Shown piece by piece: positions 2,849 to 58,626 of a stretch of DNA of 64,000 nt. The notes below the pieces were generated by a model. That model searched no databases and was not told the DNA's origin. It saw nothing but the letters and a program-made list of their open reading frames with translations. The first letter of the stretch is position 1. Each line of letters begins with the position of its first letter. Position numbers and translations under genes: made by a program. The stretch comes from Candidatus Micrarchaeia archaeon (lineage in GTDB: Archaea > Micrarchaeota > Micrarchaeia > Anstonellales > J096), in the NCBI GenBank assembly GCA_041500865.1, contig JBGQMY010000001.1, positions 18,834 to 82,833 on the forward strand, given 5' to 3'.

Positions 2849-3310
2849 CTATTTATTTATACACTCCTGGAACGCCGCTATGAATGCCTTTGACTGCTCC
2901 GGATTGGCAATTATCATCATATGGGCTTCAGCAATAGCCCATTTTTCTGGGTCTGGATTTTTGCTGCCAAAGAAAGCGATTTGCAACGGCGTCCTGTTGG
3001 TCATATTGCCCCTGGCATTAATGTCTGCGCCGTGTTCAATCAGAAGCGCATAGGTTTCGGAATTTCCGCACCATGCTGCATAGTGCAGCGCAGTCCAGCC
3101 CCCCGCATCTGTTGCGTTTATCTCGGCCCCAAGCTCCAGGAGACGCATTACTTCCTTATTGTTGCCAACATTGGCATAATCCAGAAGCTCACTATTGAGC
3201 CGCGCCTGGCGCTCTGCCGTAAGCCTCGGCCTTTCGCTCGGCAGGCCCTCCCTCGGAAGCCTGGGCTTTGGACGATTTGGGGCCCTGCCGGCTTCAAGAC
3301 GCTCTGTCAT
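2849..3310 (-). CDS. ankyrin-repeat protein with a KPRLP N-terminal motif and a C-terminal F-x-x-F-Q-E-C-INK tail
   Basis: Two to three ankyrin repeats (GWTALHYAAWCGN..., LLIEHGADINA). Belongs to the paralog family described in the findings. Confidence 0.8.
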   Translation of the reverse strand: MTERLEAGRAPNRPKPRLPREGLPSERPRLTAERQARLNSELLDYANVGNNKEVMRLLELGAEINATDAGGWTALHYAAWCGNSETYALLIEHGADINARGNMTNRTPLQIAFFGSKNPDPEKWAIAEAHMMIIANPEQSKAFIAAFQECINK

Positions 3311-3363
3311 GGATATTCAGTTAATAATAATGTTTAAAAATGTTTTGTATCATAATAGGCAAC

Positions 3364-3891
3364 ATGGACAAAAAACAGCTCGGCAAGAACAAATTGAAAG
3401 GTAACGCTACTCAGAAGATGCCTAATGTTAAAAAGGCCGTAAGCGCAGGCAAGGACGCCCTTGATGCAAAACTGGTTGCAGCCCAGGCTGTCAAAGCGCC
3501 GGCGCCAAAGGCTGCCGCTGACAAGCTGAAGCTGACGCAGGTGGAGCCTGAAGTTCCGCTTAAGGAAACGCTGAAGTCTGCGTGGAACAAGACTGCCCAC
3601 GTGGTCACCGTCCTGAAGAACATTGTCTGGAAGGCGGTTATCCCGGTTGCTGTAGCAGATTATGCCATCCAAACAATAAACGCATGCCAGCACACCACCA
3701 AGGGCCTGATTGTCGGCATTTCCACTGGATTTAACGCGGTTATGCAGCAGATTAAGCCTATTGTGGCATGGGGAGCAGGGCACACGTTGGGCGTAGTCTT
3801 AATAGTTGTTGGCTACATAGCGCTCAACAGGGCCCTGAAGTTCAGGTTCCATACCGCTTCCGCAAATGAATCCGCAGCGGAACAGAAATAA
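3364..3891 (+). CDS. hypothetical protein with a Lys/Ala-rich N-terminus and a C-terminal transmembrane segment
   Basis: ORF 3340..3891 in the track. The internal ATG at 3364 (MDKKQLGK) is the preferred start. An oligo-T tract follows the stop. Confidence 0.45.
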   Translation: MDKKQLGKNKLKGNATQKMPNVKKAVSAGKDALDAKLVAAQAVKAPAPKAAADKLKLTQVEPEVPLKETLKSAWNKTAHVVTVLKNIVWKAVIPVAVADYAIQTINACQHTTKGLIVGISTGFNAVMQQIKPIVAWGAGHTLGVVLIVVGYIALNRALKFRFHTASANESAAEQK

Positions 3892-3948
3892 TTTTATTTT
3901 TTTAGGTTTCTATTTTTCCTTCTTTTCACTAAAATTATAGAAGCGAGC

Positions 3949-5208
3949 TCAAAGCGATTTTAGTCCGCCTGCTATCCTCTTGATGCGCCTTGCCAGTGCG
4001 CCGGAATCCGCGCTCTCAAGGCAGGCAACAAGGTTCTTGTCTGAGACCTCTTGTGCGTATTTTTTGCAGCGCGCGCTTAGCTCCTCAGAGGCGCTGCCCA
4101 TATATGCCAGCGCAAGCCCGAATTTCAGGATTTCCATTGAATAGCCCACATTAATGCCTTCAAGGTCAGCCAACGTTATCGCCGCCTTGGCGCGTATTGA
4201 TTCCTTAGAAGATTCCATCTTCGGGAAGCCCTTGGCAAGGAGATATTCCATGATTGAGCGCTCATCCGCAAACTTTCCCCTGTGCGTTGAAAGCAGGTAT
4301 TTCAGGACTGCGCGGTATATGCGCTCCTCGTCTGCCCTGTTGGCCTTGGCATTGCCCCAAAGCCCGCCCGAAGGGAAGTCAGAAAGCGATTTGTTGGAAT
4401 AAATCCTTATCATGGTTTCTCCGGCAAAGGCAAGGAGCCGGAACTCGTCCTCCAAAAATCTGTCGGCAAGGATGGCTGGCCTCAAGGCGCCAATGTCCCC
4501 ATCATTCTCGCATCTTTCGCCGGAGACGAACTGGAACCTCCTGACCACGACGATATTGCCTATGCCCTCAGTTGCCTTGTCCCCATAAAGAAGGGCTTCC
4601 TGTATCGCGGCATTGAGCAGGTTGCCTTCGTCCCTAAGCGCGGATATTTTTTCAACTATTTCCTTCGTAGTGCCTTCATTAACCCTTATTGCGTCTGCAA
4701 TTGCTGAAACGTCCTTGGCAGAAAGCATGCGGATAATGGCAACCATATTCCTTGCCTGTAAAGGAAAATCCTGCGCCAGCCTGTTAAATTCATCTGCATA
4801 ATCAGTGCTAAGCGGCAGCATCATGCTTCCGTGCATGTACTCTATCAGGTCGGCCGTTATGAAGCCATCGCCCCTTTTCGCAGTCTCCCTTGGAGCCCTG
4901 ACCATGTCATGCAGAAGCCCTGCCATTATCGAAAGCGCAACCGCCTTTGGCCTTTCCGGGGAATGCTCCGGCATTGCATCCATTATGTATTCTGCCCCCG
5001 CCAGCGCTGTCCTGAGCATATGGCCGCTGTTGTGCGCAGCCTGCCTGATGTGCGTTGCTTCCTGCTTGGAATAGATAGAAATGCAGGAATCCGCGAATGC
5101 GCCGAGCTTTTTGGCCAGCGCATTGGAATTTGTAAAGACATCGCGGACGCGATTTGCTGCATAGACAGCCTCTTCCCCAATTGATTTATGGAGCTTGTTT
5201 TTTGTCAT
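3949..5208 (-). CDS. HD-domain metal-dependent phosphohydrolase
   Basis: H...HD motif (HSGHMLR...LLHDMV). The ATG at 5208..5206 overlaps the upstream methyltransferase TGA at 5207..5205, an ATGA junction, which favours the MTKNK start. Confidence 0.6.
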   Translation of the reverse strand: MTKNKLHKSIGEEAVYAANRVRDVFTNSNALAKKLGAFADSCISIYSKQEATHIRQAAHNSGHMLRTALAGAEYIMDAMPEHSPERPKAVALSIMAGLLHDMVRAPRETAKRGDGFITADLIEYMHGSMMLPLSTDYADEFNRLAQDFPLQARNMVAIIRMLSAKDVSAIADAIRVNEGTTKEIVEKISALRDEGNLLNAAIQEALLYGDKATEGIGNIVVVRRFQFVSGERCENDGDIGALRPAILADRFLEDEFRLLAFAGETMIRIYSNKSLSDFPSGGLWGNAKANRADEERIYRAVLKYLLSTHRGKFADERSIMEYLLAKGFPKMESSKESIRAKAAITLADLEGINVGYSMEILKFGLALAYMGSASEELSARCKKYAQEVSDKNLVACLESADSGALARRIKRIAGGLKSL

Positions 5209-6362
5209 GCAACCGCCTTTCTTTTTGCCATTGAGACGACATTGAGGTTGCCCTTGTTCCTCTTCTTGGTCACAAGCCTGTATTTTTCCATGCACTCCCT
5301 GTCAAAGCAGAAGCCGTTCTCAGCAAAGGCTGTTTCACGCCTCCACGCCCTTTCATGGCCCTCAACCACGTATATGGGCGACTTTGTCCCCTTTTCCGCA
5401 AAAATCTTGCCTACCTCAAACCAGAACTTCAGTATCGCCGCGTCAGCCTTCCTCTCGTCTTCAGAGAGGTTGGCAAATGCCAGGCCGCAGGAAAATGCGT
5501 CAAGATTAAAATATTTCCTGAATGCTGCTGCCCGTTCCTCCACAAAAGGCACCACAAGCGGCGCGCCTGCGCTAATGCGTTTAAAAACGTCTTTTTCTAT
5601 TTCCGCATTCCTGTGTCCTGAACTGTGGTTGGCAAGCAAAGTAAGAAGCCAGTAAACCCTTTCCGGCTTCTCCGAAAGCCCGTCATACCAGTCCCCGCTG
5701 ATGAGAGGGGCGTTTGGCTTAAGGGTCTTGGACATGGCCCCAAGATGGAAATTGAATGAGTTGTGGTGTATCGCCGCATTGGTTATGGCCATGTCAATTG
5801 AACCTGGCTTGATTTGCCGCAACGCCTCGGTTTCAGTCAGGTTATATACAACCGCAATGTTGGCTGCTGCCGTATTTATCTTCCTTATGGCATCAAGCGC
5901 TGCCTTTGTCCTGCTTGAGGACGGCTCAATGAGGGTAAGTTTTATGTTCGGGACTATTGTGCCGCCCAAGGCCGAAAGCATGGCCATTGACGTTGCGCCT
6001 GCGCCTGCGCCCACATCTAGCACAGATATGATTCCGTTCTTGCTGTGGGCAGATGCTGAGGCATATCCTCCTATTAGGGCATTCATGGTCGCATTCACGT
6101 CGCCGAGGCCCGCATTTTCCGAGGCCTTGCCCACAAGCGCGTTCAGCGAAGGGTCTGTGTCCTTCCATTCAACGGAATATGCCTCCTGCGATGCGCCATA
6201 AAGCCAGCCTATGTTTTCAGGGGTTATGCCTATGCCCCAGTTCCTGTATGAATACGAGGTTGCCCTCAGGATGCTGCCAAGCGGAACAGGGGACCAAGAC
6301 GTAAGGTCATCAATCTCGCGAACCCGCCTCTCTATGTCCTTTGTTGAGGTTAATATGTCCAT
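5205..6362 (-). CDS. class I SAM-dependent methyltransferase with a C-terminal extension
   Basis: Motif I (VLDVGAGAGATS) in a Rossmann-like fold. Translationally coupled to the downstream HD-domain gene. Confidence 0.65.
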   Translation of the reverse strand: MDILTSTKDIERRVREIDDLTSWSPVPLGSILRATSYSYRNWGIGITPENIGWLYGASQEAYSVEWKDTDPSLNALVGKASENAGLGDVNATMNALIGGYASASAHSKNGIISVLDVGAGAGATSMAMLSALGGTIVPNIKLTLIEPSSSRTKAALDAIRKINTAAANIAVVYNLTETEALRQIKPGSIDMAITNAAIHHNSFNFHLGAMSKTLKPNAPLISGDWYDGLSEKPERVYWLLTLLANHSSGHRNAEIEKDVFKRISAGAPLVVPFVEERAAAFRKYFNLDAFSCGLAFANLSEDERKADAAILKFWFEVGKIFAEKGTKSPIYVVEGHERAWRRETAFAENGFCFDRECMEKYRLVTKKRNKGNLNVVSMAKRKAVA

Positions 6363-6457
6363 GGTTGTATTGTGTAGATAAATGTTTAAAAATAGTGGTT
6401 ATTATCCGCTCTTTATAAAGATTACTTAGCCGTAACAGGGCATGATTTGGTGAGAAT

Positions 6458-7549
6458 ATGGTCTATGTGAAATCGGTTGCGCCAACAAATATAGCGGTCG
6501 TGAAATACTGGGGGAAGAACCCCTTGTGGGAAACGTACATGATACCCACCAAGAGCTCAGTCTCTTTTACTGTTGAGGGATTCCAGAGCGAAACCGAGCT
6601 GGACGCGCAGGCAGGCAGCGGCAAGGTGGAGTTCACGCTCAACGACAAAGCCATAACGCCGGACATGAAGGAATACGAATACGTGAAGGACATGTTCGGA
6701 AAGGCGTTTGAGCTGTTTCCAAACACCAAAAAGTACGATTATGCCGTAAAGAGCAGGAACAACTTCCCGACTGCGGCAGGATACGCCTCCTCGGCAAGCG
6801 GATTCGCGGCGCTTGCAAGGGCGCTCCAGGGCGCAATGAAGAGGCTTGAACCCGAGTTTTACGGAAAATACATGGCAAATGACAGGCTGCTTTCGGTTTT
6901 TGCGAGGCTGGGCAGCGGCTCCGCGACAAGGAGCGTGCCGAAGAAGGGTGGGTTCGTGCTTTGGAGGCGCGGCATGGGCCCAAAGGCCAAGAGTCCCGAA
7001 GGCATGGACGCAGCAGCAAAGGGGAAGGCAATATTCTCAAGCTGTTCCAAAAGCGTGCTTGCCCCGGAACACTGGCCGGAGCTCAGGATGATATACACAA
7101 AGGTGGAGGAGAAGGAGAAGAAGATAAAGAGCAGGGCAGGCATGAAAACATCTCTGCAGACGTGCCCGATATACTGGGACTGGGTGGATTACGAGGAGAA
7201 AAAGGACCTGCCGGCAGTCATTGACGCTGTCAGGGCAAAGGACTTCCAGGCATTCGCGAGGCTGGCAATGCAATGCAGCAACGGCCTGCATGCGATTATG
7301 GGATATACGTATCCAAGGATATCATACCTTACTGAGGGAAGCCTTGCCATAATAGACGCTGTCCATGCAATGAACGAGACGGAAACAAAGGCCGCGTACA
7401 CGTTTGATGCAGGGCCGAACGCGATAGTCTTCACGCTGGACAAGCATGAAAGCGAAGTGAAGTCCGCGCTTTCCGAGATAGTCGGAAGCGACAAGGTTGC
7501 AGTGACAAGGATGGGCAAGGGCTCACGGATAGAGAAGGTGGAAGGATGA
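6458..7549 (+). CDS. mvaD: diphosphomevalonate decarboxylase (GHMP family)
   Basis: N-terminal APTNIAVVKYWGK signature and a GHMP ATP-binding motif (AAGYASSASGFAA). First gene of a three-gene operon. Confidence 0.8.
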   Translation: MVYVKSVAPTNIAVVKYWGKNPLWETYMIPTKSSVSFTVEGFQSETELDAQAGSGKVEFTLNDKAITPDMKEYEYVKDMFGKAFELFPNTKKYDYAVKSRNNFPTAAGYASSASGFAALARALQGAMKRLEPEFYGKYMANDRLLSVFARLGSGSATRSVPKKGGFVLWRRGMGPKAKSPEGMDAAAKGKAIFSSCSKSVLAPEHWPELRMIYTKVEEKEKKIKSRAGMKTSLQTCPIYWDWVDYEEKKDLPAVIDAVRAKDFQAFARLAMQCSNGLHAIMGYTYPRISYLTEGSLAIIDAVHAMNETETKAAYTFDAGPNAIVFTLDKHESEVKSALSEIVGSDKVAVTRMGKGSRIEKVEG

Positions 7550-8643
7550 ATTCAGTAAACGTTCCTGGCAAGATACTGTTTTACGGCGGGTTCAGCGTGC
7601 TGGAAAGGGGCAACATTGCGCTAAGCGTCGCGGTCTGCGGGGAGGACGGCAGGGGCGTTGTGGCAGGTGCGGAAATAGGGGCAAGGAGGATTGTCTCGCC
7701 CCAGTTCGGGCTTGACATCAGCCCTTCGCTTGCCGACGGCCAGATAGTCTCTTATGCATACGTGTTTGCCGAGACCTACCTCAGGTCATGCGGCAAGTGG
7801 ACAGGCGACATAAGGCTGAAGGTGGAAAACAGCCCTGTGTTCGGGGCCAAGGACAGGAAGACCGGGCTCGGCAGCTCGGCTGCCGCAACCGTGGCCGTGG
7901 TCAAGGCGCTGTTTGAGGCAAACGGCCTGGACTCCAGCGCGCATGTCGAGACTGTGCACAAGCTTTCGCAGCTGGCATATGCCGCATTCTCAAAGAAGGT
8001 CGGCTCCGGGTTCGACATAGCGACAAGCGCATTCGGCAGAAGCATCATATACAATAGGTATGACCCGGCCGAGATTTCGCTTCCTTCTTCGCAGGAGGGA
8101 GCGGAAATCGGAAGGGCGATAGCCGCTTCTGTCAACAGGCCATGGGGGTGGGTGAAGGCAATCCCGTTTGCGTTTCCCAATGACTACAAGATTGTGTTCT
8201 TCAACATAATAAGGGGCAGCACGTCCACGATAAGCAGCGTCAAGGCTGCCATGGAATGGAAAAAGAGCAATGGCGACGAATACAAAAGGCTGATTGCGAA
8301 GCAAAGGGACGCCGAGGCAAAGGCCATTGAAGCCCTTTCTGCGCATAAGAGCGCCGACGTCAGAAAATACACCCATGTTGCGCGCGAGGCCCACCAGGAG
8401 CTGCAGAAAAGGGTCAAGGGGGCCGTGCCGGATTTTGACCCAATAGAGCCGGAACAGCTGACTGCCATAATACAGGATGCGGAGAAGATGGACGGAATTG
8501 TAGCCGGACGGTGCCCTGGCGCAGGCGGATATGACGGCGTGGCCTTCATAGCCGAAAGCAGATTTAGGGAAACTGGGGAGATAGCCGGGCTTGGGAAAAG
8601 GCATGGCCTGAAGCTCGAGCACATACCTTTGAGGGTGCTTTGA
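7546..8643 (+). CDS. phosphomevalonate kinase (Erg8/MvaK2-type GHMP kinase)
   Basis: N-terminal PGKILFYGGFSVLERG and a GHMP motif (KTGLGSSAAATVA). Four-nt ATGA overlap with the decarboxylase gene. Confidence 0.7.
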   Translation: MNSVNVPGKILFYGGFSVLERGNIALSVAVCGEDGRGVVAGAEIGARRIVSPQFGLDISPSLADGQIVSYAYVFAETYLRSCGKWTGDIRLKVENSPVFGAKDRKTGLGSSAAATVAVVKALFEANGLDSSAHVETVHKLSQLAYAAFSKKVGSGFDIATSAFGRSIIYNRYDPAEISLPSSQEGAEIGRAIAASVNRPWGWVKAIPFAFPNDYKIVFFNIIRGSTSTISSVKAAMEWKKSNGDEYKRLIAKQRDAEAKAIEALSAHKSADVRKYTHVAREAHQELQKRVKGAVPDFDPIEPEQLTAIIQDAEKMDGIVAGRCPGAGGYDGVAFIAESRFRETGEIAGLGKRHGLKLEHIPLRVL

Positions 8644-9522
8644 ATGCCTGGAACAGGATACGGCAAGGTCATTTTGTTTGGAGAGCATTTCGTCGTGCAT
8701 AACGAGCCTGCCATAGTCGCAGGACTGAAGAACATGAGGACTGTCATGGAGATAGAGGAAGGGCCGTGGAACCCTGAACTGGACGAGCAGTCAAAGGCAG
8801 GATATTCGGCTGTTGCAAAGGCCTGTGGCATTGAGGGAAAGACATTCACGCTGAATATCAAGGAGACTGTGCCAATAAAGCAGAACCTTGGAAGTTCGGC
8901 TGCATTTTTTGTTGCGTTCGCCAACGCGCTGAACAAAAAATACAGGCGCGGCATGAAAAAGGATGCGATAAACAGGGCGGCATATGAAGGCGAAAAATCC
9001 ATCCACGGCAAGCCCAGCGGCATAGACAATTCCGCGTCAACATACTGCAAGCCTTTGGTGTTCAGGAAAAACGCGGACGGCTCGTTCAGCATAAAGAAGC
9101 TTAGGATAGGGGCGCCGCTGCACCTTGTGATATCAAACACGGGGCCGAAAAAGGGGACAGGGGAGCTTGTTGCGCATTTCAGTTCGCTAAAAGAGAAAAA
9201 TGCCATTTCAAAGGACATGCTCTCGCTTTACAAAAAGATATTCACAAACGCTAAGACCGCGATAAAGGAAGGCAATGCAGATGGGCTCGGATTCCTGATG
9301 AACGTAAACCACGGGCTGCTTGCATCATTTGGCCTTTCCACACCCAAGATAGAGGAGGCGCGGTTCCTGATGCGGGAAAACGGGGCTTTGGGCTCAAAGA
9401 TAACCGGGGCAGGCGGCGGGGGCAACATAATAGGCCTTTTCAGGGGCGAGGAAGAGGCGAACAGGGCGAAGGCAGAAATGGAGAAGGAAGGATTCAAGTC
9501 CTTTTACGCAAGGATTGAGTGA
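8644..9522 (+). CDS. mvk: mevalonate kinase
   Basis: N-terminal GKVILFGEHFVVHNEPAIVAGL and a GHMP motif (NLGSSAAFFVA). The start codon directly abuts the stop of the preceding gene. Confidence 0.85.
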   Translation: MPGTGYGKVILFGEHFVVHNEPAIVAGLKNMRTVMEIEEGPWNPELDEQSKAGYSAVAKACGIEGKTFTLNIKETVPIKQNLGSSAAFFVAFANALNKKYRRGMKKDAINRAAYEGEKSIHGKPSGIDNSASTYCKPLVFRKNADGSFSIKKLRIGAPLHLVISNTGPKKGTGELVAHFSSLKEKNAISKDMLSLYKKIFTNAKTAIKEGNADGLGFLMNVNHGLLASFGLSTPKIEEARFLMRENGALGSKITGAGGGGNIIGLFRGEEEANRAKAEMEKEGFKSFYARIE

Positions 9523-10767: not shown

Positions 10768-12201
10768 ATGCAGAGCAAAGCCCTCATCTCCTTCGGCGGG
10801 CCATTCCCCTATGACAGGTCGTTCCGCGGCCAAGGCATAGTCCAAGGCGACCTAATCAAGGAGGCGGCCAGCCGGGGCATGAAATCCGTCGTAATATCCA
10901 AGTACCACGGGCACAGGGACCCGCTCCTGGAAAGGGCGGAGTCCATGCAGAACGTCATAGCGGAAAAGGCGTTCTGCAGCGAAATGGCGTTCATGTACAA
11001 GTCCGATTTCTGCGACGCAAAGAACAGGTGCAAGATGGGCATGCAGACCGGAAAGCCGGGCGCAATAGGGCACTGGGGCAGGTTCTATGGCATAAACCAG
11101 GTAAGGAGGCTCGCTGAAACGTATGGGCAGGTATATTACTTCATGCATTACTACAACTCCAGGTTCATGGACGCGGAATACTTCTCAAGGCTTGTCAAGC
11201 ATGAGAATCTTGGCAGTGCAATAAAGGCATATTACTTCATACATGTCGCCCCGGACCAGCTTGTTGAAAGCGAAAGGGACGGCGGCTGGATGCTAAAGCA
11301 GAACACCGGAGGCGCGGTGGAATCGCTGGTAAAGGCGATTGAGGAGGACTGCTTCAAGGCATTCATAGCAGTAAGCCAGGCTGCAAGGGACATGTGGATA
11401 GAGCTGATAAAGGCATTTGGATATAGCCATGAAACCGTGTCAGCGGCAGAAAAAAGGATAAGGGCGGTGCCCAACGGCATAGACGCCAACCTCTACGGCT
11501 CGTCGTCCCTATTGGATTCCTCTGCCCTTGAAAAGGAAAGGGCGAAGCTGGGGTTCGACCCTTCAGTAAGGAAAATAGTGCTTGTAATGACCAGGCCCAG
11601 CATATCAAAGGGCATAGACAGGATAGAGGGCATCCTTGAGGAATTCAACGATTCAACAGAGGCGAGGCTGAAAAAGATAGGGTTTCTCGTCACAATGCCA
11701 GAAACAGAAGGAACGGAACAGTTCCTTGGAAAAATCAGGCACATGTCAAACCTGGTGGACGGCAACAGGCTGAAGGTCACGCTGGACATATCAAAGATAG
11801 TCAGGAACAGGCCCGAGCTTCACGAGGAGCTTGACAACATCCAGACTCTCATGCCGTTAAGCTACCAGGACGACAGGTTCTACATAAAGCCGATAGGTTA
11901 TCCGCTGACGTACGTTTCGGACGTTTTCCTGCACCTGCCGCATGCCGAGGCGTTCGGCCTTGTCGTTGCAGAGGCGCTGATGTCAGGCTGCGCTGTCGTG
12001 ACCACAGATGCAGGGGGAATACCAGAGGTGACAAAAAACTCGGAAAACAGCGTGATGTTCGACCACAGAAGGATTGACAGGGGCATTGTGGTTGAGGCTG
12101 TTGCCGACATCGAAAAGCCGGCTGCGCCGAACGGCGCGTTTGTCGAGCAGTTCAGTTTAAAAAGACAATTCGACAAGATAGTGGGTGATGGTAATGAATA
12201 G
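10768..12201 (+). CDS. glycosyltransferase family 1 (GT-B fold)
   Basis: C-terminal GT1 signature (EAFGLVVAEALMSGCAVVTTDAGGIPEV). A TATA-like box (ATATTTAAAC) lies about 27 nt upstream. Confidence 0.7.
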   Translation: MQSKALISFGGPFPYDRSFRGQGIVQGDLIKEAASRGMKSVVISKYHGHRDPLLERAESMQNVIAEKAFCSEMAFMYKSDFCDAKNRCKMGMQTGKPGAIGHWGRFYGINQVRRLAETYGQVYYFMHYYNSRFMDAEYFSRLVKHENLGSAIKAYYFIHVAPDQLVESERDGGWMLKQNTGGAVESLVKAIEEDCFKAFIAVSQAARDMWIELIKAFGYSHETVSAAEKRIRAVPNGIDANLYGSSSLLDSSALEKERAKLGFDPSVRKIVLVMTRPSISKGIDRIEGILEEFNDSTEARLKKIGFLVTMPETEGTEQFLGKIRHMSNLVDGNRLKVTLDISKIVRNRPELHEELDNIQTLMPLSYQDDRFYIKPIGYPLTYVSDVFLHLPHAEAFGLVVAEALMSGCAVVTTDAGGIPEVTKNSENSVMFDHRRIDRGIVVEAVADIEKPAAPNGAFVEQFSLKRQFDKIVGDGNE

Positions 12202-12775
12202 TGTGAATCCAAGCCTTGTGCATTACGGAATGAACAGGTATGTCTTCAGGCTGGACAGCAGAAGGAGAATAGAAATAAGGAAGATAGGCAACGATTCGAT
12301 CCTGTTCAAGATAATGAGAAAAAACAGGGCAACAGGCGAAGGCAATGCCCAAAGCTACCTGTTCCGCATGAAGGATATGGGTGAGGATGAAGAAAGCGAC
12401 CTGAAAAGAATCATGACAAACGTAAACATGCTGGCAGACATGATAAAGCTGAAAACAGACAGGGGCGACCAGGACGAGAAGTGGAAGAAGAAGCTCAATT
12501 TCTACCTGATGATACTCGGCCAGAGCAGCATGGCAGACAAGCACCTCAAGAGGATATACGAAAGGGAAGGCATAGCATACAGGAAAGAGGAGCTGCCCAG
12601 GATAAAGAGGCTTGTCATAAGGCTCTTCACCATACCCGAGCCTGAGCATGTGATTGCAAAGGCCGTTGAGAAAAAGATAAGCCTGAAGCCGGACGACGTG
12701 CCCAAAATCTGCTGGGGAATACACGCGTTCCAGCACGCGCTGGACGAGATAAGGGAAGGCAAAAGGATTTACTGA
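12185..12775 (+). CDS. hypothetical protein
   Basis: Charged, helical, 196 aa. Overlaps the end of the glycosyltransferase gene by 17 nt. Confidence 0.4.
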   Translation: MMVMNSVNPSLVHYGMNRYVFRLDSRRRIEIRKIGNDSILFKIMRKNRATGEGNAQSYLFRMKDMGEDEESDLKRIMTNVNMLADMIKLKTDRGDQDEKWKKKLNFYLMILGQSSMADKHLKRIYEREGIAYRKEELPRIKRLVIRLFTIPEPEHVIAKAVEKKISLKPDDVPKICWGIHAFQHALDEIREGKRIY

Positions 12776-12820
12776 TTGCAAAATCATTAGCTTTTTAAGG
12801 GTTTAACTTCAATTCTGCTT

Positions 12821-12863
12821 ATGGCAAACATTCACGATAACAGGGGATACCGTGGCGGCAGGC
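12821..12863 (+). repeat. 43-bp direct repeat, left copy (identical to 16921..16963, the start of the Nop5-like gene)
   Basis: Exact 43-nt identity (atggcaaacattcacgataacaggggataccgtggcggcaggc). Degenerate similarity also runs through the 25 nt of promoter sequence upstream. Confidence 0.9.
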
Positions 12864-13202
12864 GACAGCGGCAGGATTGCGAGGCTCCTGAGGCTCGGCG
12901 CCGACGTTTGGGCAAGGGACAATCTAGGCTTTACCGCACTCATGTGCGCCTCATTTGATGGGCACATCAGCATCTGCGCGCTGCTGCTTGAAAGGCTCGC
13001 GCAGGCAGGCGGGGACACAAGAAAGTATATCGAGACTGTGATAGAGGAAGGCATCCATAAGGGATGGGCTGCATTCACATATGCCGAATATAATCACAGG
13101 AAGCCGGCCAAGTTTCTAAAGGCGGCTCCGTTGCTTGCCGAGTCGATGGGAAACGCGGATTTCGCCAAGTTCCTTTCAGGCTTCAGGGAATGCATGGGCT
13201 GA
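12852..13202 (+). CDS. ankyrin-family C-terminal fragment driven by the duplicated Nop5 promoter/start
   Basis: One ankyrin repeat plus the family's C-terminal FAKFLSGFRECMG tail. GTG start in the track. Reading frame differs from that of the duplicated ATG. Confidence 0.5.
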   Translation: MAAGDSGRIARLLRLGADVWARDNLGFTALMCASFDGHISICALLLERLAQAGGDTRKYIETVIEEGIHKGWAAFTYAEYNHRKPAKFLKAAPLLAESMGNADFAKFLSGFRECMG

Positions 13203-13300
13203 TAATAGTCACAGAATCAAGATATGTTATAAAAATGTCAAAGAAGACGATATTTCTCAAATTTATATAGGTTACTTTTATAAATTATAATAAGTATTAA

Positions 13301-13660
13301 ATGGTCGGTGATTACATGGAAGATATAGAAGAAACTCCAGAGTCAATTACAGTTTCAGATTCTTATTCTTTTAAACTTTATCACGGAAGCAAAAAGAAAT
13401 ATTTACTAAAGGGAACAGGTAATGACAACGTTCAAAAAAGAATTTCAAGGAAACCATATGGTGCGCATGGTGCAATCCACCTAGTTATGGTAAAAGGAAA
13501 GTATGTTCATATCGATTGCAAAAACAAGGGATGCGGTAACAACTGGACAATGGAAAAAAATGGGAAGAATTATACTAACTTTTTTAGTGTGGAAAAAGAA
13601 GCATCTGGTATTGATTTGATTAAGTGCAAGAAATGTGGTGCTGAACACGAAAGTGGTTGA
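13301..13660 (+). CDS. small hypothetical protein with a Zn-ribbon-like CxxC...CxxC pair
   Basis: CKNKGC ... CKKCG. AT-rich (about 33% GC), unlike the surrounding genome. Confidence 0.4.
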   Translation: MVGDYMEDIEETPESITVSDSYSFKLYHGSKKKYLLKGTGNDNVQKRISRKPYGAHGAIHLVMVKGKYVHIDCKNKGCGNNWTMEKNGKNYTNFFSVEKEASGIDLIKCKKCGAEHESG

Positions 13661-13694
13661 TCCGAGATAGAGTAATAATGCAGCGACAAAAGAT

Positions 13695-14138
13695 TCAATC
13701 TTTTATTTTATAAACTTCAAAACCTTCTGCCAAAGCAACTTCTTTTAGATACTTATCCGCTGATGCAAATATTAGTTCATTGTGATTTTTCTTAGCTTCC
13801 AAGGCGCAAGCCAATTGCATTGCATCGAAAGATTCTAATTTTGCGTATTTTTCCATAAGCTGAACGCTTTTTTCCAATATTTCCTTAGTTATCTTTACTG
13901 TATTAAAGGATCTATATTCAACTAAAAAAGCATTTATATCGTTATGCTTCTTCGTCAGATTTGTTATTATTTCGTATGGCAAAAGGGATGAAATTATTAC
14001 ATTTTTAATGCCGCTGGATGCCTTTCCGTCAGATGATTCATTTAATATGGTCCAATATAAATTATTCATTTCGTTCGTACACTGCTCTTGCCTGAATATA
14101 CCAAACAATGCGCTGGTGTCACAGAAATAGTACTTCAT
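13695..14138 (-). CDS. PIN-domain (VapC-like) nuclease
   Basis: N-terminal YFCDTSAL with conserved acidic residues (SFDAMQLA). The ATG at 14138..14136 overlaps the restriction-modification gene TGA as an ATGA junction. AT-rich. Confidence 0.7.
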   Translation of the reverse strand: MKYYFCDTSALFGIFRQEQCTNEMNNLYWTILNESSDGKASSGIKNVIISSLLPYEIITNLTKKHNDINAFLVEYRSFNTVKITKEILEKSVQLMEKYAKLESFDAMQLACALEAKKNHNELIFASADKYLKEVALAEGFEVYKIKD

Positions 14139-16834
14139 TCTAGGCTTTCCTCTATTATTTTCCTTTCTTCATCCGTAATGTCATACAATTTATAGACTTC
14201 TTCATCAATTTCATTATCTAATTTTTGGATTTCTTTTTCAAGACGAATTTTTTCGTCGGTTTGCTTGTCTGATAATAATACAAATTTTTTTGCAAGACTA
14301 AGTCTATTATCAATTAATTTAATGATAATTTGCCTATTTGAATCAATAACTACGGGTAGTATATCTAGAAATTCGCTCCGATATCTCATATATCCTCCGC
14401 CCATATGCATTCCACCAAAAAGTACATTATATACAAAAGAAAGTAATTTACTATTTAATATACCCAATATGTATTTCAGTTCAATATCTTTAATTAAGGT
14501 GGCAAAGTAGACACCTCCTTGAGGAATTCTCTTGTCAAAATCAATAGTTGCACTAATCGTTAAAGCATCTTCCGCAATAATTAATTTATCTTTAAAAGAA
14601 TTCAGGAGCCGTTCAGACTTTTCTCCTGCAACAGTCATCAAATGATGTTTGCTAATATATGTGCCCTCCCTGATAGGGCCCCATTTTTCAAATTGATACT
14701 GTTTAACAATACCAAAATCATTCTTCTGTTTTTCTTCATAATCCACAGGAATTCTGAATCCTTCTGATATCTGTAAAATATCTGACAGTTTCCCATTTTG
14801 ACTCTCAAGTTTTAAAACTAAATTTATTGCTTTCTGGTTTGAGTTTATAGGAAATACTTTATAAGGAACAATAGAAAGATCATTGTTCTTTATATTAGAT
14901 ATTTCAAATTTGTTATTCAAAAAATATGCCAAATTTCTGATAAATCCTAACTTTAAATTTTTTAATTTTTCGCCTTTCCGTATGAGTATAATTACAGGGT
15001 AGTTGCTAGCGTCTTTAAAAATATCCAAATGACTAACACTTAATATTGAACAATCTTCAGAAGAATTCAGTAATAATTCCCGCAATTTTTTTGCTGAGGC
15101 AGCAGCACAAAATTTATTTGGAAGTATAAATCCGAGATACCCTCCTTTCTTTATTAATTTAAGAGATTGCTCAATAAAAAGATAATAAAGGTCGTATTTT
15201 CCTTCGGAAACAATAAACTCATCTTTCCAAAATTCCTTATCTTCTTTATCTAAACTATCAACTCTGACATACGGCGGATTACCAATCACCACGTCAAACC
15301 CATACCCTTCTTTCAGATTGCCGTTTTCGTCGTATTGTATGGTGTCCGGGAACTGCTCGTCCCAATTGAGCGGCTTCTTGTCATCCCACTTTTCGCCGAA
15401 GTATTTCTTCAGCTCCTCTTCCTTCCCGGAAATCAGCGAATTGCCGTTCTTTATGTTCCCGGAAAGCAGGGGGAACATTCCTCTTTTCCGCGAAGTTTCA
15501 ACCGCCTTAAGCAACAGGTTAAGCTCGGATATCTCAATGGCCTTTTTGTCAAGGTCTACGCCGTGTATGTTCTTGGTCAGAATCATGTGGGCATTGCGCG
15601 ATATGTCCTCCGTCAGCATCCCGCTGTCCCCGCCGTACGCCTTCCTGTACGCATCCGCGAACATCCCATAGGCGCGTATCAGGAACGAGCCCGAGCCGCA
15701 TGCCGGGTCAAGCACCTTTATCTTCTGCAGTTTCTCAGGTGTGTCTGCGCCCTTCAAGACCTCGCCAAGCGTGTTTTTGACAATATAATCGACAATGTAA
15801 CGGGGCGTGTAATAAATGCCCATTTCCTTCCTGTTGGCCTCTTTTGCCACCAAACGGCCGCTTTCACGCAATATCGTGGCAAGGTACTGCTCATATATCC
15901 CGCCCAGGACATCAACGTCTATGGCTGAAAAATCCCATTTATAAAGGCCGTCCTCTCCGTCTATGAGCTTCTCGACCACGGCATCGTCAATGTACATTTC
16001 CCCGGCAAAGTGGGGCGAAAACAGGTCACTGTCGTACCATTCTATGAAATCGTCAAAAACCTCCCTTAGGTGGCGCATGAGCTTCTTTTTCCCGTTTTCC
16101 CTCCATATGCGCACGGATTCCCGAAGCCGCTCATTCTCTATCCCAAGGCCCTCGCAGGTCCTTATGAACACGAAGCGGTTAAGCAGCTTCTGGACGCCCT
16201 CATCCACCTGCTCCTTGGAAAGCTTGTTGAGCCTGCTGTGCTCCATGATGTTGTTGGAAAGCGCCTTCCTCCATGCCATCAGGTCGTTAAGGAGCGCCTT
16301 GCCCACCGGCTCAGGCTTTATCTTCTTTCCCACCTTTTCAGCATAAGTGTCTATCTCATTGGAGGCAAACGCCTCCTTTCCAAGGAGCAGCAGTTCGCCA
16401 AGCCGTGAGACATAGTCATCCAGCGTGAATTTAAGGAACCGGCTGTCCTTGTTGTATTTTGCTTCGGCATTGTAGATAATCAGTTCCCTGAAGTTTGTCA
16501 GGACTGCCCATGGAACTGACTTGTAATAGGCATAATCAACCGACTGCTCCGCTTCCTTTTCCTCAAGCTCGACATTCACTGCCTTCGCCTCAAGGAAGAA
16601 CTTAAAGACCCCGGAAACCATGAAGGCATAGTCTGCCCTTGTGCGCAGGACATTGGACTCCATGGAGACTTCCCCAAGATCCTTCATATTCCAGCCAAGA
16701 GCCTCAAGAAGGGGCTCTATAAAAACCCTTTTTGTGTCGGGCTCCCCAAGGCCCTTTAGCATCCCCCTTGCCTCATATCCCTTATATTTTGAGACAAGCT
16801 CGGATATCTTGGCCTTTGCCGCTTCCGTATCCAT
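14135..16834 (-). CDS. Type IIG restriction-modification enzyme, MmeI-like: PD-(D/E)xK nuclease, gamma-class N6-adenine methyltransferase and target-recognition domain
   Basis: N-terminal D...EAK nuclease motif (ADYAF...FLEAKAV). Methyltransferase motif I LDPACGSGSFL at about aa 376 and motif IV GNPPY at aa 518-522. The 899-aa length matches MmeI. GC content drops sharply across the NPPY motif. Confidence 0.8.
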   Translation of the reverse strand: MDTEAAKAKISELVSKYKGYEARGMLKGLGEPDTKRVFIEPLLEALGWNMKDLGEVSMESNVLRTRADYAFMVSGVFKFFLEAKAVNVELEEKEAEQSVDYAYYKSVPWAVLTNFRELIIYNAEAKYNKDSRFLKFTLDDYVSRLGELLLLGKEAFASNEIDTYAEKVGKKIKPEPVGKALLNDLMAWRKALSNNIMEHSRLNKLSKEQVDEGVQKLLNRFVFIRTCEGLGIENERLRESVRIWRENGKKKLMRHLREVFDDFIEWYDSDLFSPHFAGEMYIDDAVVEKLIDGEDGLYKWDFSAIDVDVLGGIYEQYLATILRESGRLVAKEANRKEMGIYYTPRYIVDYIVKNTLGEVLKGADTPEKLQKIKVLDPACGSGSFLIRAYGMFADAYRKAYGGDSGMLTEDISRNAHMILTKNIHGVDLDKKAIEISELNLLLKAVETSRKRGMFPLLSGNIKNGNSLISGKEEELKKYFGEKWDDKKPLNWDEQFPDTIQYDENGNLKEGYGFDVVIGNPPYVRVDSLDKEDKEFWKDEFIVSEGKYDLYYLFIEQSLKLIKKGGYLGFILPNKFCAAASAKKLRELLLNSSEDCSILSVSHLDIFKDASNYPVIILIRKGEKLKNLKLGFIRNLAYFLNNKFEISNIKNNDLSIVPYKVFPINSNQKAINLVLKLESQNGKLSDILQISEGFRIPVDYEEKQKNDFGIVKQYQFEKWGPIREGTYISKHHLMTVAGEKSERLLNSFKDKLIIAEDALTISATIDFDKRIPQGGVYFATLIKDIELKYILGILNSKLLSFVYNVLFGGMHMGGGYMRYRSEFLDILPVVIDSNRQIIIKLIDNRLSLAKKFVLLSDKQTDEKIRLEKEIQKLDNEIDEEVYKLYDITDEERKIIEESLE

Positions 16835-16920
16835 AGAACCAGTATATTCTCAAACAATTATAAACCTTGCCAAGAGAACCCATCCCTCAGGTTTATAAGC
16901 ATTTAACCTAAACTACGTTC

Positions 16921-16963
16921 ATGGCAAACATTCACGATAACAGGGGATACCGTGGCGGCAGGC
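16921..16963 (+). repeat. 43-bp direct repeat, right copy (native 5' end of the Nop5-like gene)
   Basis: Identical to 12821..12863. Confidence 0.9.
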
Positions 16964-17814
16964 ATTACGGCGGAAAGCCCAGCGGAGGCTTTGGAAGGGA
17001 CGGGGGCCGGTTCGGGGGAGGCCAGGGCGGAGGCAGCAACCTCAGGGAAAAGTTCATGCACAGGGCACGCAAGAAGTTCGAGGAGTTCAGGGCAAGGGAA
17101 GATTTATTCTTAATGGAAGTGGACAGGGCCATTGACGACCTGGACAAGATGATAAACCTCATCGGCGAAAGGCTTGAGGAATGGATGGCATTCTACATAA
17201 GCGGCATAAGGCTGGGCGAAAAGGCCAAGCTGGCAAAGCTGACAATACTCATAGCAGACAAGAAGGACATAACAAAAGAGGATCTCAACGCATTCCTCAG
17301 CGAGAAGGAGACTGAAGCGGTCTTTGAAAAGCTGGGGCAAAGGACAAAGGAGGTCAAGGAAAAGGACCTCATTTACATGAAGAAATACGCGGAAATGCTG
17401 CTGAAGATGGTTGAGCTTAACGAGTTTTACGCGAACGAGATTGACGCACTGGCGAACAGGATTGCGCCGAACGCGACATACCTCGTGGGCGGAAAGGTCG
17501 TCGCGAAGATGATTACGCTGGCAAAGGGCCTTGACAGGCTGGCAAAGATGCCATCCAGCACCGTCCAGCTGCTTGGCGCCGAGAAGGCGCTGTTCAATTA
17601 CCTGAAGATGGGAAAGAAGGGCGACCCGCCAAAGCACGGCGTCATACTTTTCTCGCCCCAGGTTTCCGGCGTAAGGAAGGAATACAGGGGCAGGATGGCA
17701 AGGACGCTTGCTGCTAAGCTTTCAATAGCGTTCAGGGTTGACGACGCAAAAGGCGAGTTCTACGGCAAGCAGCTGAAGGAAGCGATAGACAGGAGAATGA
17801 AGGAACTGATTTAG
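16921..17814 (+). CDS. Nop5/Nop56-family (Nop-domain) C/D box RNP protein with an N-terminal Gly/Arg-rich (RGG) extension
   Basis: C-terminal Nop domain (LVGGKVVAKMITLAKGLDRLAKMPSSTVQLLGAEKALF...PKHGVILF...RGRMARTLAAKLSIAFRVD), preceded by a coiled-coil region. The first 40 aa are RGG/GGG-rich. A TTTATAAG box lies about 30 nt upstream of the ATG. Confidence 0.75.
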   Translation: MANIHDNRGYRGGRHYGGKPSGGFGRDGGRFGGGQGGGSNLREKFMHRARKKFEEFRAREDLFLMEVDRAIDDLDKMINLIGERLEEWMAFYISGIRLGEKAKLAKLTILIADKKDITKEDLNAFLSEKETEAVFEKLGQRTKEVKEKDLIYMKKYAEMLLKMVELNEFYANEIDALANRIAPNATYLVGGKVVAKMITLAKGLDRLAKMPSSTVQLLGAEKALFNYLKMGKKGDPPKHGVILFSPQVSGVRKEYRGRMARTLAAKLSIAFRVDDAKGEFYGKQLKEAIDRRMKELI

Positions 17815-17816
17815 GG

Positions 17817-18413
17817 ATGAGATTACTGTTCGTCTCTGACTTGCACGGAAGCGTTGAAGCGCTCAATGCGATAAAAAGGGCGGATTACGGCGCGCTGGTC
17901 ATAGCCGGGGACATCCAGTATGCTGACTGCGCCAGGGAAGTCGCAAAACTAAAAAACGTTTATTTTGTGCCTGGGAATATGGACACAGAACCGGTCCTTG
18001 ATGCAATGAAAGGCAAAAATATACACGGCAAAACTGTCAAGATTGGAAAGATAAAGGTTGCTGGCTTTGGCTTTGCCCCTCCTGGGCCGTTCCACACGCC
18101 AGGCGAGATAAGCGAGGAAAGCATTGCAGAAGGGCTGTCAAGGCTGGAAATTGACGACGATACGGTGCTTGTCACGCATGCCCCGCCTTACGGGATACTG
18201 GACAAATCCGATGGAGGCCGTGCAGGAAGCAAGAGCATAAGAAATTTCGTTCTCGCAAAAAAGCCGTTCATGCATGTTTTCGGCCATATACACGAGGCAA
18301 GCGGAAGCGTGCGCAAAGGAAACACCAATTTCGTGAAACTCCCTCCCGCATACTCGCTAAAGGGTGCATATCTTGATGATGAAACAAGGCAGTACATACT
18401 CTCTCTCATTTGA
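17817..18413 (+). CDS. calcineurin-like metallophosphoesterase
   Basis: Motifs DLHG ... GDI ... GNMD ... THAPP ... GHIH. Confidence 0.7.
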   Translation: MRLLFVSDLHGSVEALNAIKRADYGALVIAGDIQYADCAREVAKLKNVYFVPGNMDTEPVLDAMKGKNIHGKTVKIGKIKVAGFGFAPPGPFHTPGEISEESIAEGLSRLEIDDDTVLVTHAPPYGILDKSDGGRAGSKSIRNFVLAKKPFMHVFGHIHEASGSVRKGNTNFVKLPPAYSLKGAYLDDETRQYILSLI

Positions 18414-47943: not shown

Positions 47944-47994
47944 GCATCCATCGTGCGGCAAAGGGATTAAAATGCTATTGGGCAATGAGATTCC

Positions 47995-58593: not shown

Positions 58594-58626
58594 TTCTTTA
58601 TAAAACGTTTAATGCAAAATAAAGGC

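Follow-up and report, generated by a model that had tools for sequence, protein, structure and literature searches.

The 5' end of the Nop5 gene occurs twice in the DNA analysed here, a stretch of 64,000 nt from a Candidatus Micrarchaeia archaeon (contig JBGQMY010000001.1; hereafter the window, to which all positions refer). One copy belongs to the intact gene and the other lies upstream of it, with a restriction-modification (RM) gene among the genes in between. This raises the question of how the arrangement arose, and from which promoter Nop5 is now transcribed. The following features were considered.

12185–12775, plus strand: left flanking core gene (195/196 aa, from the ORF list), directly upstream of Nop5 in relatives with an empty site
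12789–12820, plus strand: P_A, the native Nop5 promoter
12821–12863, plus strand: left 43-bp copy, Nop5 codons 1–14 plus 1 nt, exact match to 16921–16963
12852–13202, plus strand: ank', 5'-truncated ankyrin-family gene (116 aa, GC 0.56; Pfam Ank, Ank_2, Ank_4)
13301–13660, plus strand: putative zinc ribbon (119 aa by ORF translation, GC 0.35; Cys pairs C-x4-C and C-x2-C)
13695–14138, minus strand: PIN-domain gene (GC 0.33; Pfam PIN 1.5e-9)
14135–16834, minus strand: type IIG RM gene (899 aa; PADLOC REase_MTase_IIG 2e-105, Pfam Eco57I 3.4e-36)
16835–16920, unstranded: divergent promoter region of the RM cassette, common with contig L005 up to 16907 (88% identity)
16921–16963, plus strand: right 43-bp copy, 5' end of the intact Nop5 gene
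16921–17814, plus strand: Nop5, intact (297 aa, RGG tail and Nop domain; Pfam Nop 8e-44)

The 43-bp repeat

The original prediction of an exact 43-bp direct repeat was confirmed, with exactly two copies in the window (12821–12863 and 16921–16963), both on the plus strand. Shuffling the sequence 100 times gave an expectation of 0 matches for the 43-mer, and no third copy was present in the window even when up to 3 mismatches were allowed. A repeat finder extended the pair to 75 nt with 85% identity (12789–12863 and 16889–16963). The 43 nt are identical, while the 32 nt located 5' of each copy agree at 21 positions only, a clearly uneven distribution of differences (11/32 against 0/43; Fisher p = 2.6e-5). 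A 45-codon out-of-frame ORF (12821–12958) begins at the left copy. The gene content of the segment was also found as first described: the ankyrin gene, the four-Cys 119-aa gene, the PIN gene and the type IIG RM gene, followed by Nop5.

The repeat structure was detected in the JGI contig Ga0534157_0000243 with 1 mismatch over 16.9 kb, and in NCBI JBGOZM010000006.1 with 99.95% identity over 22.7 kb. Diverged repeats in the same arrangement had been named as evidence against the prediction; the 99.95% identical genome is the sole one with this arrangement, and its repeat is exact too. A Logan contig (L010, k = 31) spans the left junction 12863/12864 and ends exactly 30 nt inside the repeat. Taken together, four assemblies obtained with different assemblers display the structure, so that neither the repeat nor the insert is an assembly artefact.

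Empty sites in relatives and the two promoters of Nop5

Two more distant Ca. Micrarchaeia relatives display an empty site, with the 196-aa gene 42–50 nt from Nop5. The gene order in L004 is GT1, a 188-aa gene, 50 nt and Nop5, and the spacer between the 196-aa-gene ortholog and Nop5 measures 42 nt in the P0123 contigs. An insertion next to Nop5 is thus borne out by the very comparison which had been proposed as a check. According to these relatives, the segment 12864–16920 (4,057 bp) is a recent insertion bounded by the 43-bp repeat. The insertion point lies within the first 14 codons of Nop5 and not merely beside the gene, and the repeat is duplicated target sequence. The closest relative, L003 (88–92% nucleotide identity), harbours a different cargo of 1.39 kb (GC 0.385) at the same locus, inserted 28 nt upstream of the Nop5 ATG between 14-nt direct repeats. 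Window positions 12779–12850 are 96% identical to the region upstream of Nop5 in L003, so that the ancestral sequence is preserved at the left junction. Both 43-bp copies contain CGTGGC at a place where L003 and L004 have AGGGGA. The product of the flanking 196-aa gene had no match in Pfam, NCBIfam or PADLOC.

As claimed earlier, neither an integrase nor a transposase was found in the segment itself or in some 10 kb on either side (window 2188–26834). No tRNA or Rfam RNA was detected at the insertion site, and terminal inverted repeats at the insert ends did not exceed 7 nt. The term target-site duplication holds in the sense of a duplicated target sequence, but a duplication of the transposase type is unlikely, since 43 bp is too long and both terminal inverted repeats and transposase are missing.

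The two copies of the repeat are preceded by different promoters. P_A contains the TATA-like sequence CTTTTTAAGG about 22–31 nt before the ATG, in agreement in position and sequence with the TTTTTAAAC/TATTTAAAC boxes located 5' of further leaderless genes of the window. Cut off from Nop5, P_A is now directed towards the ankyrin fragment. The divergent promoter region on the right carries a 10-nt inverted repeat, TTATAAACCT (16858–16867) and AGGTTTATAA (16889–16898), whose arms provide the RM gene and Nop5 with a TATA box each; the Nop5 promoter on this side was named P_B (16889–16920). P_B agrees with the Nop5 promoters of the relatives at 21–23 of 32 positions. Unrelated promoters agree with them at 9.7 positions on average and at no more than 17, and the cassette's own RM promoter at 19. 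P_B is thus a foreign, diverged homolog of the Nop5 promoter and part of the RM cassette. The view that the repeats duplicate the Nop5 promoter has to be abandoned: P_A is the native one (30/32 positions in common with L003 and 29/32 with L004) and P_B was imported. From this anatomy, the intact Nop5 gene (product 96–97% identical to the L003 ortholog and 82% to that of L004) would now be transcribed from P_B. The native P_A and 43 nt of Nop5 would have been left upstream, out of frame with the ankyrin fragment which has captured the promoter.

Origin of the inserted genes

The proposed defence cargo does include a type IIG RM gene, but the cargo is not uniform, and at least three blocks of different composition form a mosaic: the ankyrin fragment (GC 0.56), the Zn-ribbon and PIN genes with the C-terminal half of the RM gene (about 0.30–0.35), and the N-terminal half of the RM gene (0.51). 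The switch within the RM gene occurs near 15290, at the NPPY motif, with a GC of 0.30 on the C-terminal side. The RM protein is composed of an N-terminal PD-(D/E)xK-type nuclease, a gamma-class N6-adenine methyltransferase and a TaqI_C-like specificity domain (further Pfam matches: N6_Mtase, HSDR_N, TaqI_C). Assignment to type IIG is supported; the likeness to MmeI is not, as only the shared methyltransferase model matches, and weakly, while the best Pfam match is Eco57I.

A stretch comprising the RM gene and the distal part of P_B (14142–16907) is 88% identical to three contigs of a much more distant Micrarchaeon (L005–L007). The RM gene reaches this nucleotide identity over its whole length, while core genes of that lineage are only 64–75% identical to those of the window. 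There, too, the RM gene lies divergently beside Nop5, and its GC mosaic recurs. The RM gene and P_B are thus of foreign origin. In L005, the RM gene is followed at a distance of 7 nt by the 3' part of a 196-aa-gene homolog, a passenger fragment with 67% identity to the window 196-aa gene over 30 aa. Compared by eye, its C-terminal motifs look more like those of the window/L004 type than those of the full-length copy of L005 itself; at the nucleotide level, alignment over about 140 nt gave no clear separation (0.51–0.54 against 0.48). L005 shows that pieces of the locus move between lineages with fragments of flanking core genes attached. No viral relative of the RM protein was found, and the 43-mer was absent from 2.9 million viral contigs.

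The claim of an ankyrin 3' fragment placed out of frame behind the duplicated start proved correct. The start of ank' is a GTG inside the repeat, in a frame different from that of the ATG at 12821. It aligns with eight paralogs in the window, which share its C-terminal motif and have about 60–80 more N-terminal residues. A search of 5.8 billion proteins gave no close homolog. The gene, whose GC is host-like, belongs to the host clade's own ankyrin family but has lost its 5' part. Read in the ankyrin frame, the end of the repeat (T-V-A-A-G) fits the family pattern including the invariant Gly; a similar nucleotide sequence was found in none of the ankyrin paralogs. The 119-aa four-Cys protein had no match in Pfam, PADLOC or NCBIfam. 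The start of the PIN gene overlaps the RM stop codon (ATGA), thus both genes are probably co-transcribed. No PIN gene is present downstream of the RM gene in L005.

Possible routes of insertion

With moderate confidence, the repeat is regarded as a scar left when DNA was recently inserted, with long target duplication, by host recombination anchored on the Nop5 start. The donor DNA would be a chromosomal stretch from the same locus of another Micrarchaeon which comprises the truncated ankyrin paralog and the Zn-ribbon, PIN and RM genes and ends on the right with the Nop5 promoter of the donor. Integration would rely on the general recombination machinery of the host without a dedicated recombinase, by homologous pairing over the Nop5 promoter and start at the right end and by an illegitimate join at position +43, probably through microhomology, at the left end. 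A linear fragment could have entered by one-sided homology-facilitated illegitimate recombination; alternatively, a fragment circularised beforehand could have been integrated by a single crossover. The two 43-bp copies are identical although the promoters differ at 11 of 32 positions, which implies that donor and recipient were identical over 43 nt or that repair of a heteroduplex made them alike. None of the collections searched contained the donor arrangement (full-length ankyrin gene, Zn-ribbon, PIN, RM, P_B and Nop5, without the left repeat). Recombination between the copies would precisely delete the island and restore the native P_A–Nop5 configuration; the RM gene may serve in defence, and post-segregational killing could stabilise the insert.

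As part of the same explanation, the gap between the conserved 196-aa gene and Nop5 is probably a recombination hot spot in a Ca. Micrarchaeia lineage. In related genomes this locus is empty or holds a 430-aa gene, an RM island, or mevalonate genes with the RM gene, and thus resembles defence islands at core-gene hot spots, where variable cargo occupies the same intergenic position. Exchange by flanking homology normally leaves no duplication, whereas here the 43-bp scar and the passenger fragment expose the junctions.

Homology-facilitated illegitimate recombination was reportedly the subject of work by de Vries and Wackernagel and by Prudhomme and co-workers, both in 2002. A description is also available (PMC3240628). 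On the proposed route, the locus would share with it homologous anchoring of one end, an illegitimate join of the other through microhomology and the lack of a dedicated recombinase; the passenger fragment in L005, derived from a flanking core gene, fits as well. The join here lies downstream of the start of the anchor and results in a duplication, not in the usual deletion. Demonstrations of the process come only from bacteria, in transformation or conjugation.

Archaeal and bacterial integrases targeting tRNA genes, and phage 21 at icd, rebuild the end of their target gene. Similarly, a decayed or non-autonomous mobile element could have integrated site-specifically here, the 43 bp being the attL/attR core, the tyrosine or serine recombinase being lost or acting in trans from elsewhere in the genome, and the replacement promoter and start keeping the essential gene alive. 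The exact core is of typical att length, identity falls sharply on both sides, direct repeats of tens of bp over a gene end with a functional replacement copy are common to both, and an RM gene beside Nop5 in two distant lineages could reflect site preference. This is nevertheless considered unlikely. Besides the missing integrase and transposase and the lack of viral matches, the target is the 5' end and promoter of a protein gene, not a tRNA 3' end. Nor is the unit conserved between genomes: L005 shares only the RM gene and promoter and lacks a 43-mer-like att pair. Moreover, the truncated host-family gene and the donor homolog of the target promoter in the cargo point to a chromosomal, not an episomal, origin.

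Equally improbable is an insertion driven by the restriction enzyme itself, as has been proposed for long target duplication: the incoming enzyme would introduce staggered double-strand breaks into two copies of the chromosome, and their repair around the RM DNA would duplicate the stretch between them. The structure does agree with the long-target-duplication class in every published feature tested (PMC2853133), and cleavage by type IIG enzymes takes place away from the recognition site; yet the target-promoter homolog at the insert end and the non-RM cargo of L003 with its 14-nt duplication are left unexplained. An in-situ tandem duplication of the 75-bp promoter and start, with later divergence of the promoter part and filling-in of cargo, would account for homology over 75 nt, but is very unlikely and already contradicted by the promoter comparison and the L005–L007 cassette match: all differences fall in the promoter positions, the copy in use is the diverged one while the idle left copy still resembles the L003/L004 promoters, and the diverged part is common with the distant RM cassette. 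An assembly chimera of two strains joined at a shared 43-mer, conceivable in view of the metagenomic source and the sharp GC jumps inside the segment, is hardly credible given the four concordant assemblies, the k = 31 contig across the left junction, a 75-nt repeat shorter than the k-mer of the k = 141 contigs, and the recurrence of the GC mosaic in another lineage.

Insertion of RM genes with long target duplication was described in earlier work (Nobusato et al. 2000, Gene 259:99; Furuta, Abe and Kobayashi 2010, NAR 38:2428, PMC2853133). The repeats of this class are typically 46–47 bp or longer and often lie across a start or stop codon, so that the target gene survives; double-strand breakage is suspected as common factor, and type IIG genes were also reported to swap their target-recognition domains (PMC2853133). 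The GC mosaic of the present RM gene resembles such a swap. The present case shares an RM gene in a short insert (<20 kb), direct repeats >30 bp, the lack of mobility genes, and repeats which align once to the empty site of a related genome. It differs in that the insert brings a diverged target promoter, so that an essential gene changes promoter, that a truncated host-family gene and a PIN/Zn-ribbon pair are added to the cargo, and that the same RM-plus-promoter cassette lies beside Nop5 in a second, distant lineage. It also differs in its host, an archaeon of the DPANN group (Ca. Micrarchaeia); the 2010 screen yielded no archaeal case (PMC2853133). The pattern has thus already been described for bacterial restriction genes, and the archaeal case reported here is new.

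The 43-bp repeat and the genes of the insert

The 43-mer ATGGCAAACATTCACGATAACAGGGGATACCGTGGCGGCAGGC was found in two exact copies in the window (12821-12863 and 16921-16963), in agreement with the original prediction. No third copy was detected in the 64-kb window with up to three mismatches allowed, and a chance origin is ruled out by an expectation of 0 matches in shuffled sequence. A repeat finder extended the pair to 75 nt (12789-12863 / 16889-16963) with 85% identity (64/75). All 11 differences between the copies lie in the upstream 32 nt, where 21 of 32 positions match, and none in the 43 nt (43/43; Fisher p = 2.6e-5).

The structure is present in four assemblies, which rules out an assembly chimera. 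The JGI contig Ga0534157_0000243 differs from the window by 1 base in 16.9 kb, and the NCBI contig JBGOZM010000006.1 (GCA_041480205.1), with 99.95% identity over 22.7 kb, has an identical repeat pair. A Logan contig (SRR29605729) spans the 12863/12864 junction with 0 mismatches and ends exactly 30 nt into the repeat, as expected of a k = 31 graph at a true repeat.

The insert between the two copies measures 4,057 bp (12864-16920). The features of the insert and its flanks are listed below with their GC content, the host average being 0.51.

10768-12201, GT1 glycosyltransferase, left flank
12185-12775, gene of 195/196 aa (196-aa gene), no match in Pfam, NCBIfam or PADLOC, left flank
12821, ATG opening a 45-codon ORF
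12852-13202, ankyrin ORF (ank'), 116 aa, GTG start inside the repeat and in a frame different from that of the ATG at 12821, GC 0.56
13203-13300, intergenic, GC 0.19
13301-13660, four-Cys protein (putative Zn-ribbon), 119 aa, GC 0.35
13695-14138, minus strand, PIN gene, start overlapping the stop of the restriction-modification (RM) gene, GC 0.33
14135-16834, minus strand, type IIG RM gene, 899 aa, GC 0.30 in the C-terminal half and 0.51 in the N-terminal half
16921-17814, Nop5, right flank

The insert is a mosaic. At least eight paralogs of ank' are encoded in the window, all of which have the C-terminal F..F.EC motif in common with ank' and are about 60-80 residues longer at the N-terminus. 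The shared motif and the additional N-terminus indicate that ank' represents a clade-specific chromosomal gene, here truncated at the 5' end, and not a gene of a mobile element. In a collection of 5.8 billion proteins, neither a close homolog nor a full-length parent of ank' was found apart from the fragment itself. The ankyrin-repeat family is large in the window (33428-35893, 35995-36588, 47170-48354, 58477-59187 and 2849-3310) and includes a four-gene tandem array; its members have an N-terminal K-P-R-L region in common and a conserved C-terminal F..F.EC.GG motif.

The RM gene is a single type IIG fusion (PADLOC REase_MTase_IIG, 2e-105) with Pfam matches to an HSDR_N nuclease, Eco57I/N6_Mtase and TaqI_C, so that the insert is predicted to encode both restriction and modification. 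Its earlier description as MmeI-like type IIG holds for the type and fails for the family: the MmeI_Mtase match is weak (2.3e-12, versus 3.4e-36 for Eco57I), and none of the MmeI-specific Pfam domains MmeI_N, MmeI_hel, MmeI_TRD and MmeI_C was matched in the protein. By sequence, the match to the nearest solved relatives is confined to the methyltransferase core. The GC content of the gene switches at the NPPY motif, near 15275-15300, and the low-GC half comprises the rest of the methyltransferase and the specificity domain. The same mosaic is found in the 88% identical RM gene of L005-L007, three assemblies of a distant Micrarchaeon (0.49 and 0.30 in L005). Consequently, the mosaic predates both transfers, and the GC switch is ruled out as a sign of a chimeric contig. 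The mosaic points to an ancient exchange of the specificity half via recombination inside the conserved motif. Between the window and JBGOZM010000006.1, nine of the 12 differences are packed into 57 nt of the RM gene (15941-15997), several of them 3 nt apart and some matching the L005 allele; this cluster resembles a small patch of recombination or a mix of strain alleles.

The insertion site in relatives and the origin of the two promoters

Relatives were obtained from a metagenome scan and a genome scan, at least one from each. The comparison with empty sites confirmed that an insertion had taken place beside Nop5. In L004, a relative with about 74-84% nucleotide identity, the GT1 gene is followed by a 188-aa gene, 50 nt and Nop5, with one copy of the repeat sequence. 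According to the gene coordinates, two further contigs whose Nop5 protein is 86% identical show the order GT1, 192-aa gene, 42 nt and Nop5.

The closest relative, L003 (88-92% nucleotide identity; Nop5 96-97% at the amino acid level), carries other cargo between the same two genes and a single copy of the 43-nt target. This cargo of 1,389 bp (GC 0.385 versus about 0.50 in the flanks) sits upstream of the TATA box and contains a 430-aa gene on the minus strand, for whose product no family match was obtained. It is flanked by the 14-nt direct repeat CAAAATCATT[G/A]GCT (1077-1090 and 2480-2493), a sequence which occurs once each in the window (12779-12792) and L004. The repeat marks another insertion into this spacer, again with duplication of the target and with no RM gene. 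At least three independent states of the spacer that separates the 196-aa gene from Nop5 (empty, with the L003 cargo, with the window insert) make it a hot spot. A remoter relative (L011, Nop5 53% identical) shows no synteny and is hence uninformative on the site. The metallophosphoesterase gene between Nop5 and an acetyltransferase gene (17817-18413) is present in the window, absent in L004 and present at least in part in L003, where the contig breaks off within it; this is another indel just downstream of Nop5.

The 32 nt preceding each repeat copy, P_A on the left (12789-12820) and P_B on the right (16889-16920), were compared with the Nop5 promoters of the relatives. P_A matches at 30/32 (L003) and 29/32 positions (L004), and the region 12779-12850 is 96% identical to the Nop5 upstream region of L003. 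Therefore, the segment from the 196-aa gene through +43 of the left copy represents the ancestral empty site. P_B matches the same promoters at only 21-23 of 32 positions. Unrelated promoters of the same genome gave a mean of 9.7 (SD 2.9, maximum 17), and since P_B lies well over this null, it is a diverged homolog of a Nop5 promoter. The sole promoter above the null maximum was the RM promoter, the inverted-repeat partner of P_B (19/32); aligned in the same register, the RM promoter and P_B agree at 19 of 32 positions. The view that the repeat duplicates the Nop5 promoter thus had to be revised: P_A is native and P_B is a foreign, diverged homolog. A perfect 10-nt inverted repeat (TTATAAACCT at 16858-16867 and AGGTTTATAA at 16889-16898), conserved in L005, forms the two divergent TATA boxes of the RM gene and Nop5.

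The RM gene in full and the adjoining intergenic sequence as far as the TTTAAC of P_B make up the stretch 14142-16907, which has 88% identity to L005-L007. There too the RM gene lies divergently beside Nop5, despite core genes which are only 64-75% identical to those of the window. The presence of this block beside Nop5 in both lineages indicates that the RM gene and its promoter region travel between lineages as one cassette. Together with the promoter comparison, the block also rules out a duplication in situ followed by drift.

The Nop5 proteins of the clade (window; 401-aa form P0125 of the L005 lineage; L003, 2522-3412; L004, 3897-4787) consist of a Nop domain (residues 71-294) preceded by a hypervariable RGG-rich tail of about 40 aa in the window and about 145 aa in P0125. 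They are devoid of the additional N-terminal PF21572 of archaeal homologs of about 400 aa, and their genes have no fibrillarin gene as neighbour. The body of the window protein differs from that of L003 at 1 aa, and the tail at about 10 of 40 positions.

Mode of insertion

Several known kinds of insertion were considered. Integrase-mediated elements contain or adjoin a gene for a tyrosine or serine recombinase, and the unit is conserved at its att site or episomal. Neither recombinase gene was found in the insert or its flanks of about 10 kb, and only the RM gene and promoter are common to L005-L007, so that the unit is not conserved. As originally stated, an integrase or transposase is lacking: no Pfam match to either was obtained in the insert or about 10 kb on either side (genes of 2188-26834). 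DNA transposons have terminal inverted repeats, a transposase and a short target duplication (under about 15 bp). The proposed transposon-like target-site duplication was therefore discarded, given that 43 bp are duplicated, that a transposase is missing and that no terminal inverted repeat above 7 nt was found, the longest terminal inverted match being 7 nt. A tRNA-like or RNA att site is ruled out by the lack of any tRNA or Rfam match in 12000-18000, and, as regards a viral or plasmid origin, neither the 43-mer nor the RM protein had a match in viral contigs.

[quoted passage not shown] It is defined by restriction and modification functions, an insert below 20 kb, a duplication above 30 bp, no linked mobility genes, a repeat not belonging to a multi-copy element and, in a related genome, an empty site with one copy. 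The published repeats range from 46-47 bp up to hundreds of bp and often cross a start or stop codon, whereby the target gene survives. No archaeal case passed the 2010 screen, and the mechanism is regarded as open, double-strand breakage having been suggested by the authors (PMC2853133). Here, the insert of 4,057 bp and the 43/43 identical duplication fall on the required side of both limits; no mobility genes are linked in 2188-26834, and the 43-mer occurs only twice in 64 kb. The repeats align to the one-copy empty site of L004, and the two contigs compared by gene coordinates are alike. Since all the defining features are found, the locus is an archaeal member of the class. Two features are added to those of the published cases: a homolog of the target promoter has been imported, and the cassette is found beside Nop5 a second time, in a distant lineage.

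Projected onto the ancestral sequence, the foreign DNA is joined at +43 of Nop5 on its left side and somewhere from about -13 to the ATG on its right; the offset between the two accounts for the duplication. The right end of the insert is a 75-nt homolog of the target (P_B and the 43 bp). Nop5 is intact and has its promoter homolog supplied by the insert. The native P_A and 43 nt now face ank', for which the repeat supplies the GTG start, preceded by AGGGGA.

Homology-facilitated illegitimate recombination combines a homologous anchor at one end with microhomology at the illegitimate junction, and such an anchor is present at the right end of the insert. Host recombination would have integrated the insert by homologous pairing at the Nop5 start on the right, and the left end would have been joined illegitimately. 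The incoming fragment may have been linear and integrated through homology-facilitated illegitimate recombination, or it may have circularised first and entered by a single crossover. An exchange between the two repeat copies would regenerate the exact empty site.

Translated in the ankyrin frame, the repeat ends (last 12-15 nt) in T-V-A-A-G. This agrees with the x-[AV]-x-x-G pattern of the family, in which the Gly is invariant, and hints at a candidate microhomology junction. At the nucleotide level, the comparison of the repeat end with the ankyrin paralogs was uninformative (15/27 matches at most). Under the microhomology model, the donor ankyrin gene would read ...GTGGCGGCAGGC followed at the truncation point by GAC... 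The weak point of the mechanism is that both repeat copies have CGTGGC where L003 and L004 have AGGGGA: either donor and recipient did not differ within the 43 nt, or repair turned a heteroduplex into a single type. No boundary of a donor-derived tract beyond +43 in Nop5 could be called from the divergence profile against L003 and L004. The RGG-tail region 16951-17070 is hypervariable (65-78% versus L003, 48-68% versus L004), and L003 and L004 differ from each other there too.

The cassette in the distant lineage and its implications

In L005, a 3' fragment of a homolog of the 196-aa gene (ending ...DDVAMICWGIHAFEKALDEFREKGSIE and its stop) is located 7 nt past the RM stop (3083-3225), with 67% identity to the window gene over 30 aa. 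The own full-length copy of L005 (193 aa, 7483-8064) lies 4 kb off, adjoining GT1. By eye, the C-terminal motifs of the fragment look nearer to the window/L004 type than to this copy; nucleotide alignment over about 140 nt gave no clear separation (0.51-0.54 versus 0.48). The passenger fragment suggests that the L005 RM gene came in on a piece of chromosome from a genome where it lay between the 196-aa gene and Nop5, together with parts of both flanks.

In L005, the segment made up of the promoter, RM gene and 196-aa-gene fragment has a 15-nt direct repeat at its two edges, AACAGAAGGAAC[G/T]GT (271-257 and 3249-3235, minus strand). One copy falls in codons 3-7 of Nop5, the other in the final codons of the AcnX-swivel gene. 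The repeat may reflect junction microhomology or chance. Between the 193-aa gene and RM/Nop5 (3225-7482), L005 has archaeal-type mevalonate genes, which encode AcnX large and small subunits, UbiD-like, flavoprotein/UbiX-like and AA_kinase/IPK-like proteins. The window has MVD-like and GHMP-kinase genes instead, upstream of GT1 (~6458-9522). Related Micrarchaeia appear to differ in the variant of the mevalonate pathway that they use.

The RM gene and its bidirectional promoter could also be a self-propagating cassette which homes to the Micrarchaeia Nop5 start without a recombinase of its own and replaces an essential promoter, a reading considered rather improbable. If it were true, imprecise deletion of the cassette would also silence Nop5, adding a layer of addiction to post-segregational killing, and the Nop5 adjacency in two lineages with core genes of 64-75% identity would reflect targeting and not a shared locus history. 

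In a DPANN archaeon, the locus exemplifies, at good resolution, a known and mechanistically unexplained form of RM mobility. As a clean archaeal case, it has all states in hand: empty, with alternative cargo, filled, and with the same cassette in a distant lineage. A mechanistic clue comes from the homolog of the target promoter with which the insert terminates and from the L005 passenger piece of the other flanking gene: both argue for the capture of chromosomal fragments anchored by homology and not for a dedicated recombinase. To our knowledge, no mechanism of genetic exchange is known in Micrarchaeia. The locus documents gene flow between their lineages and indicates that an essential ribonucleoprotein gene can change its promoter via island insertion.
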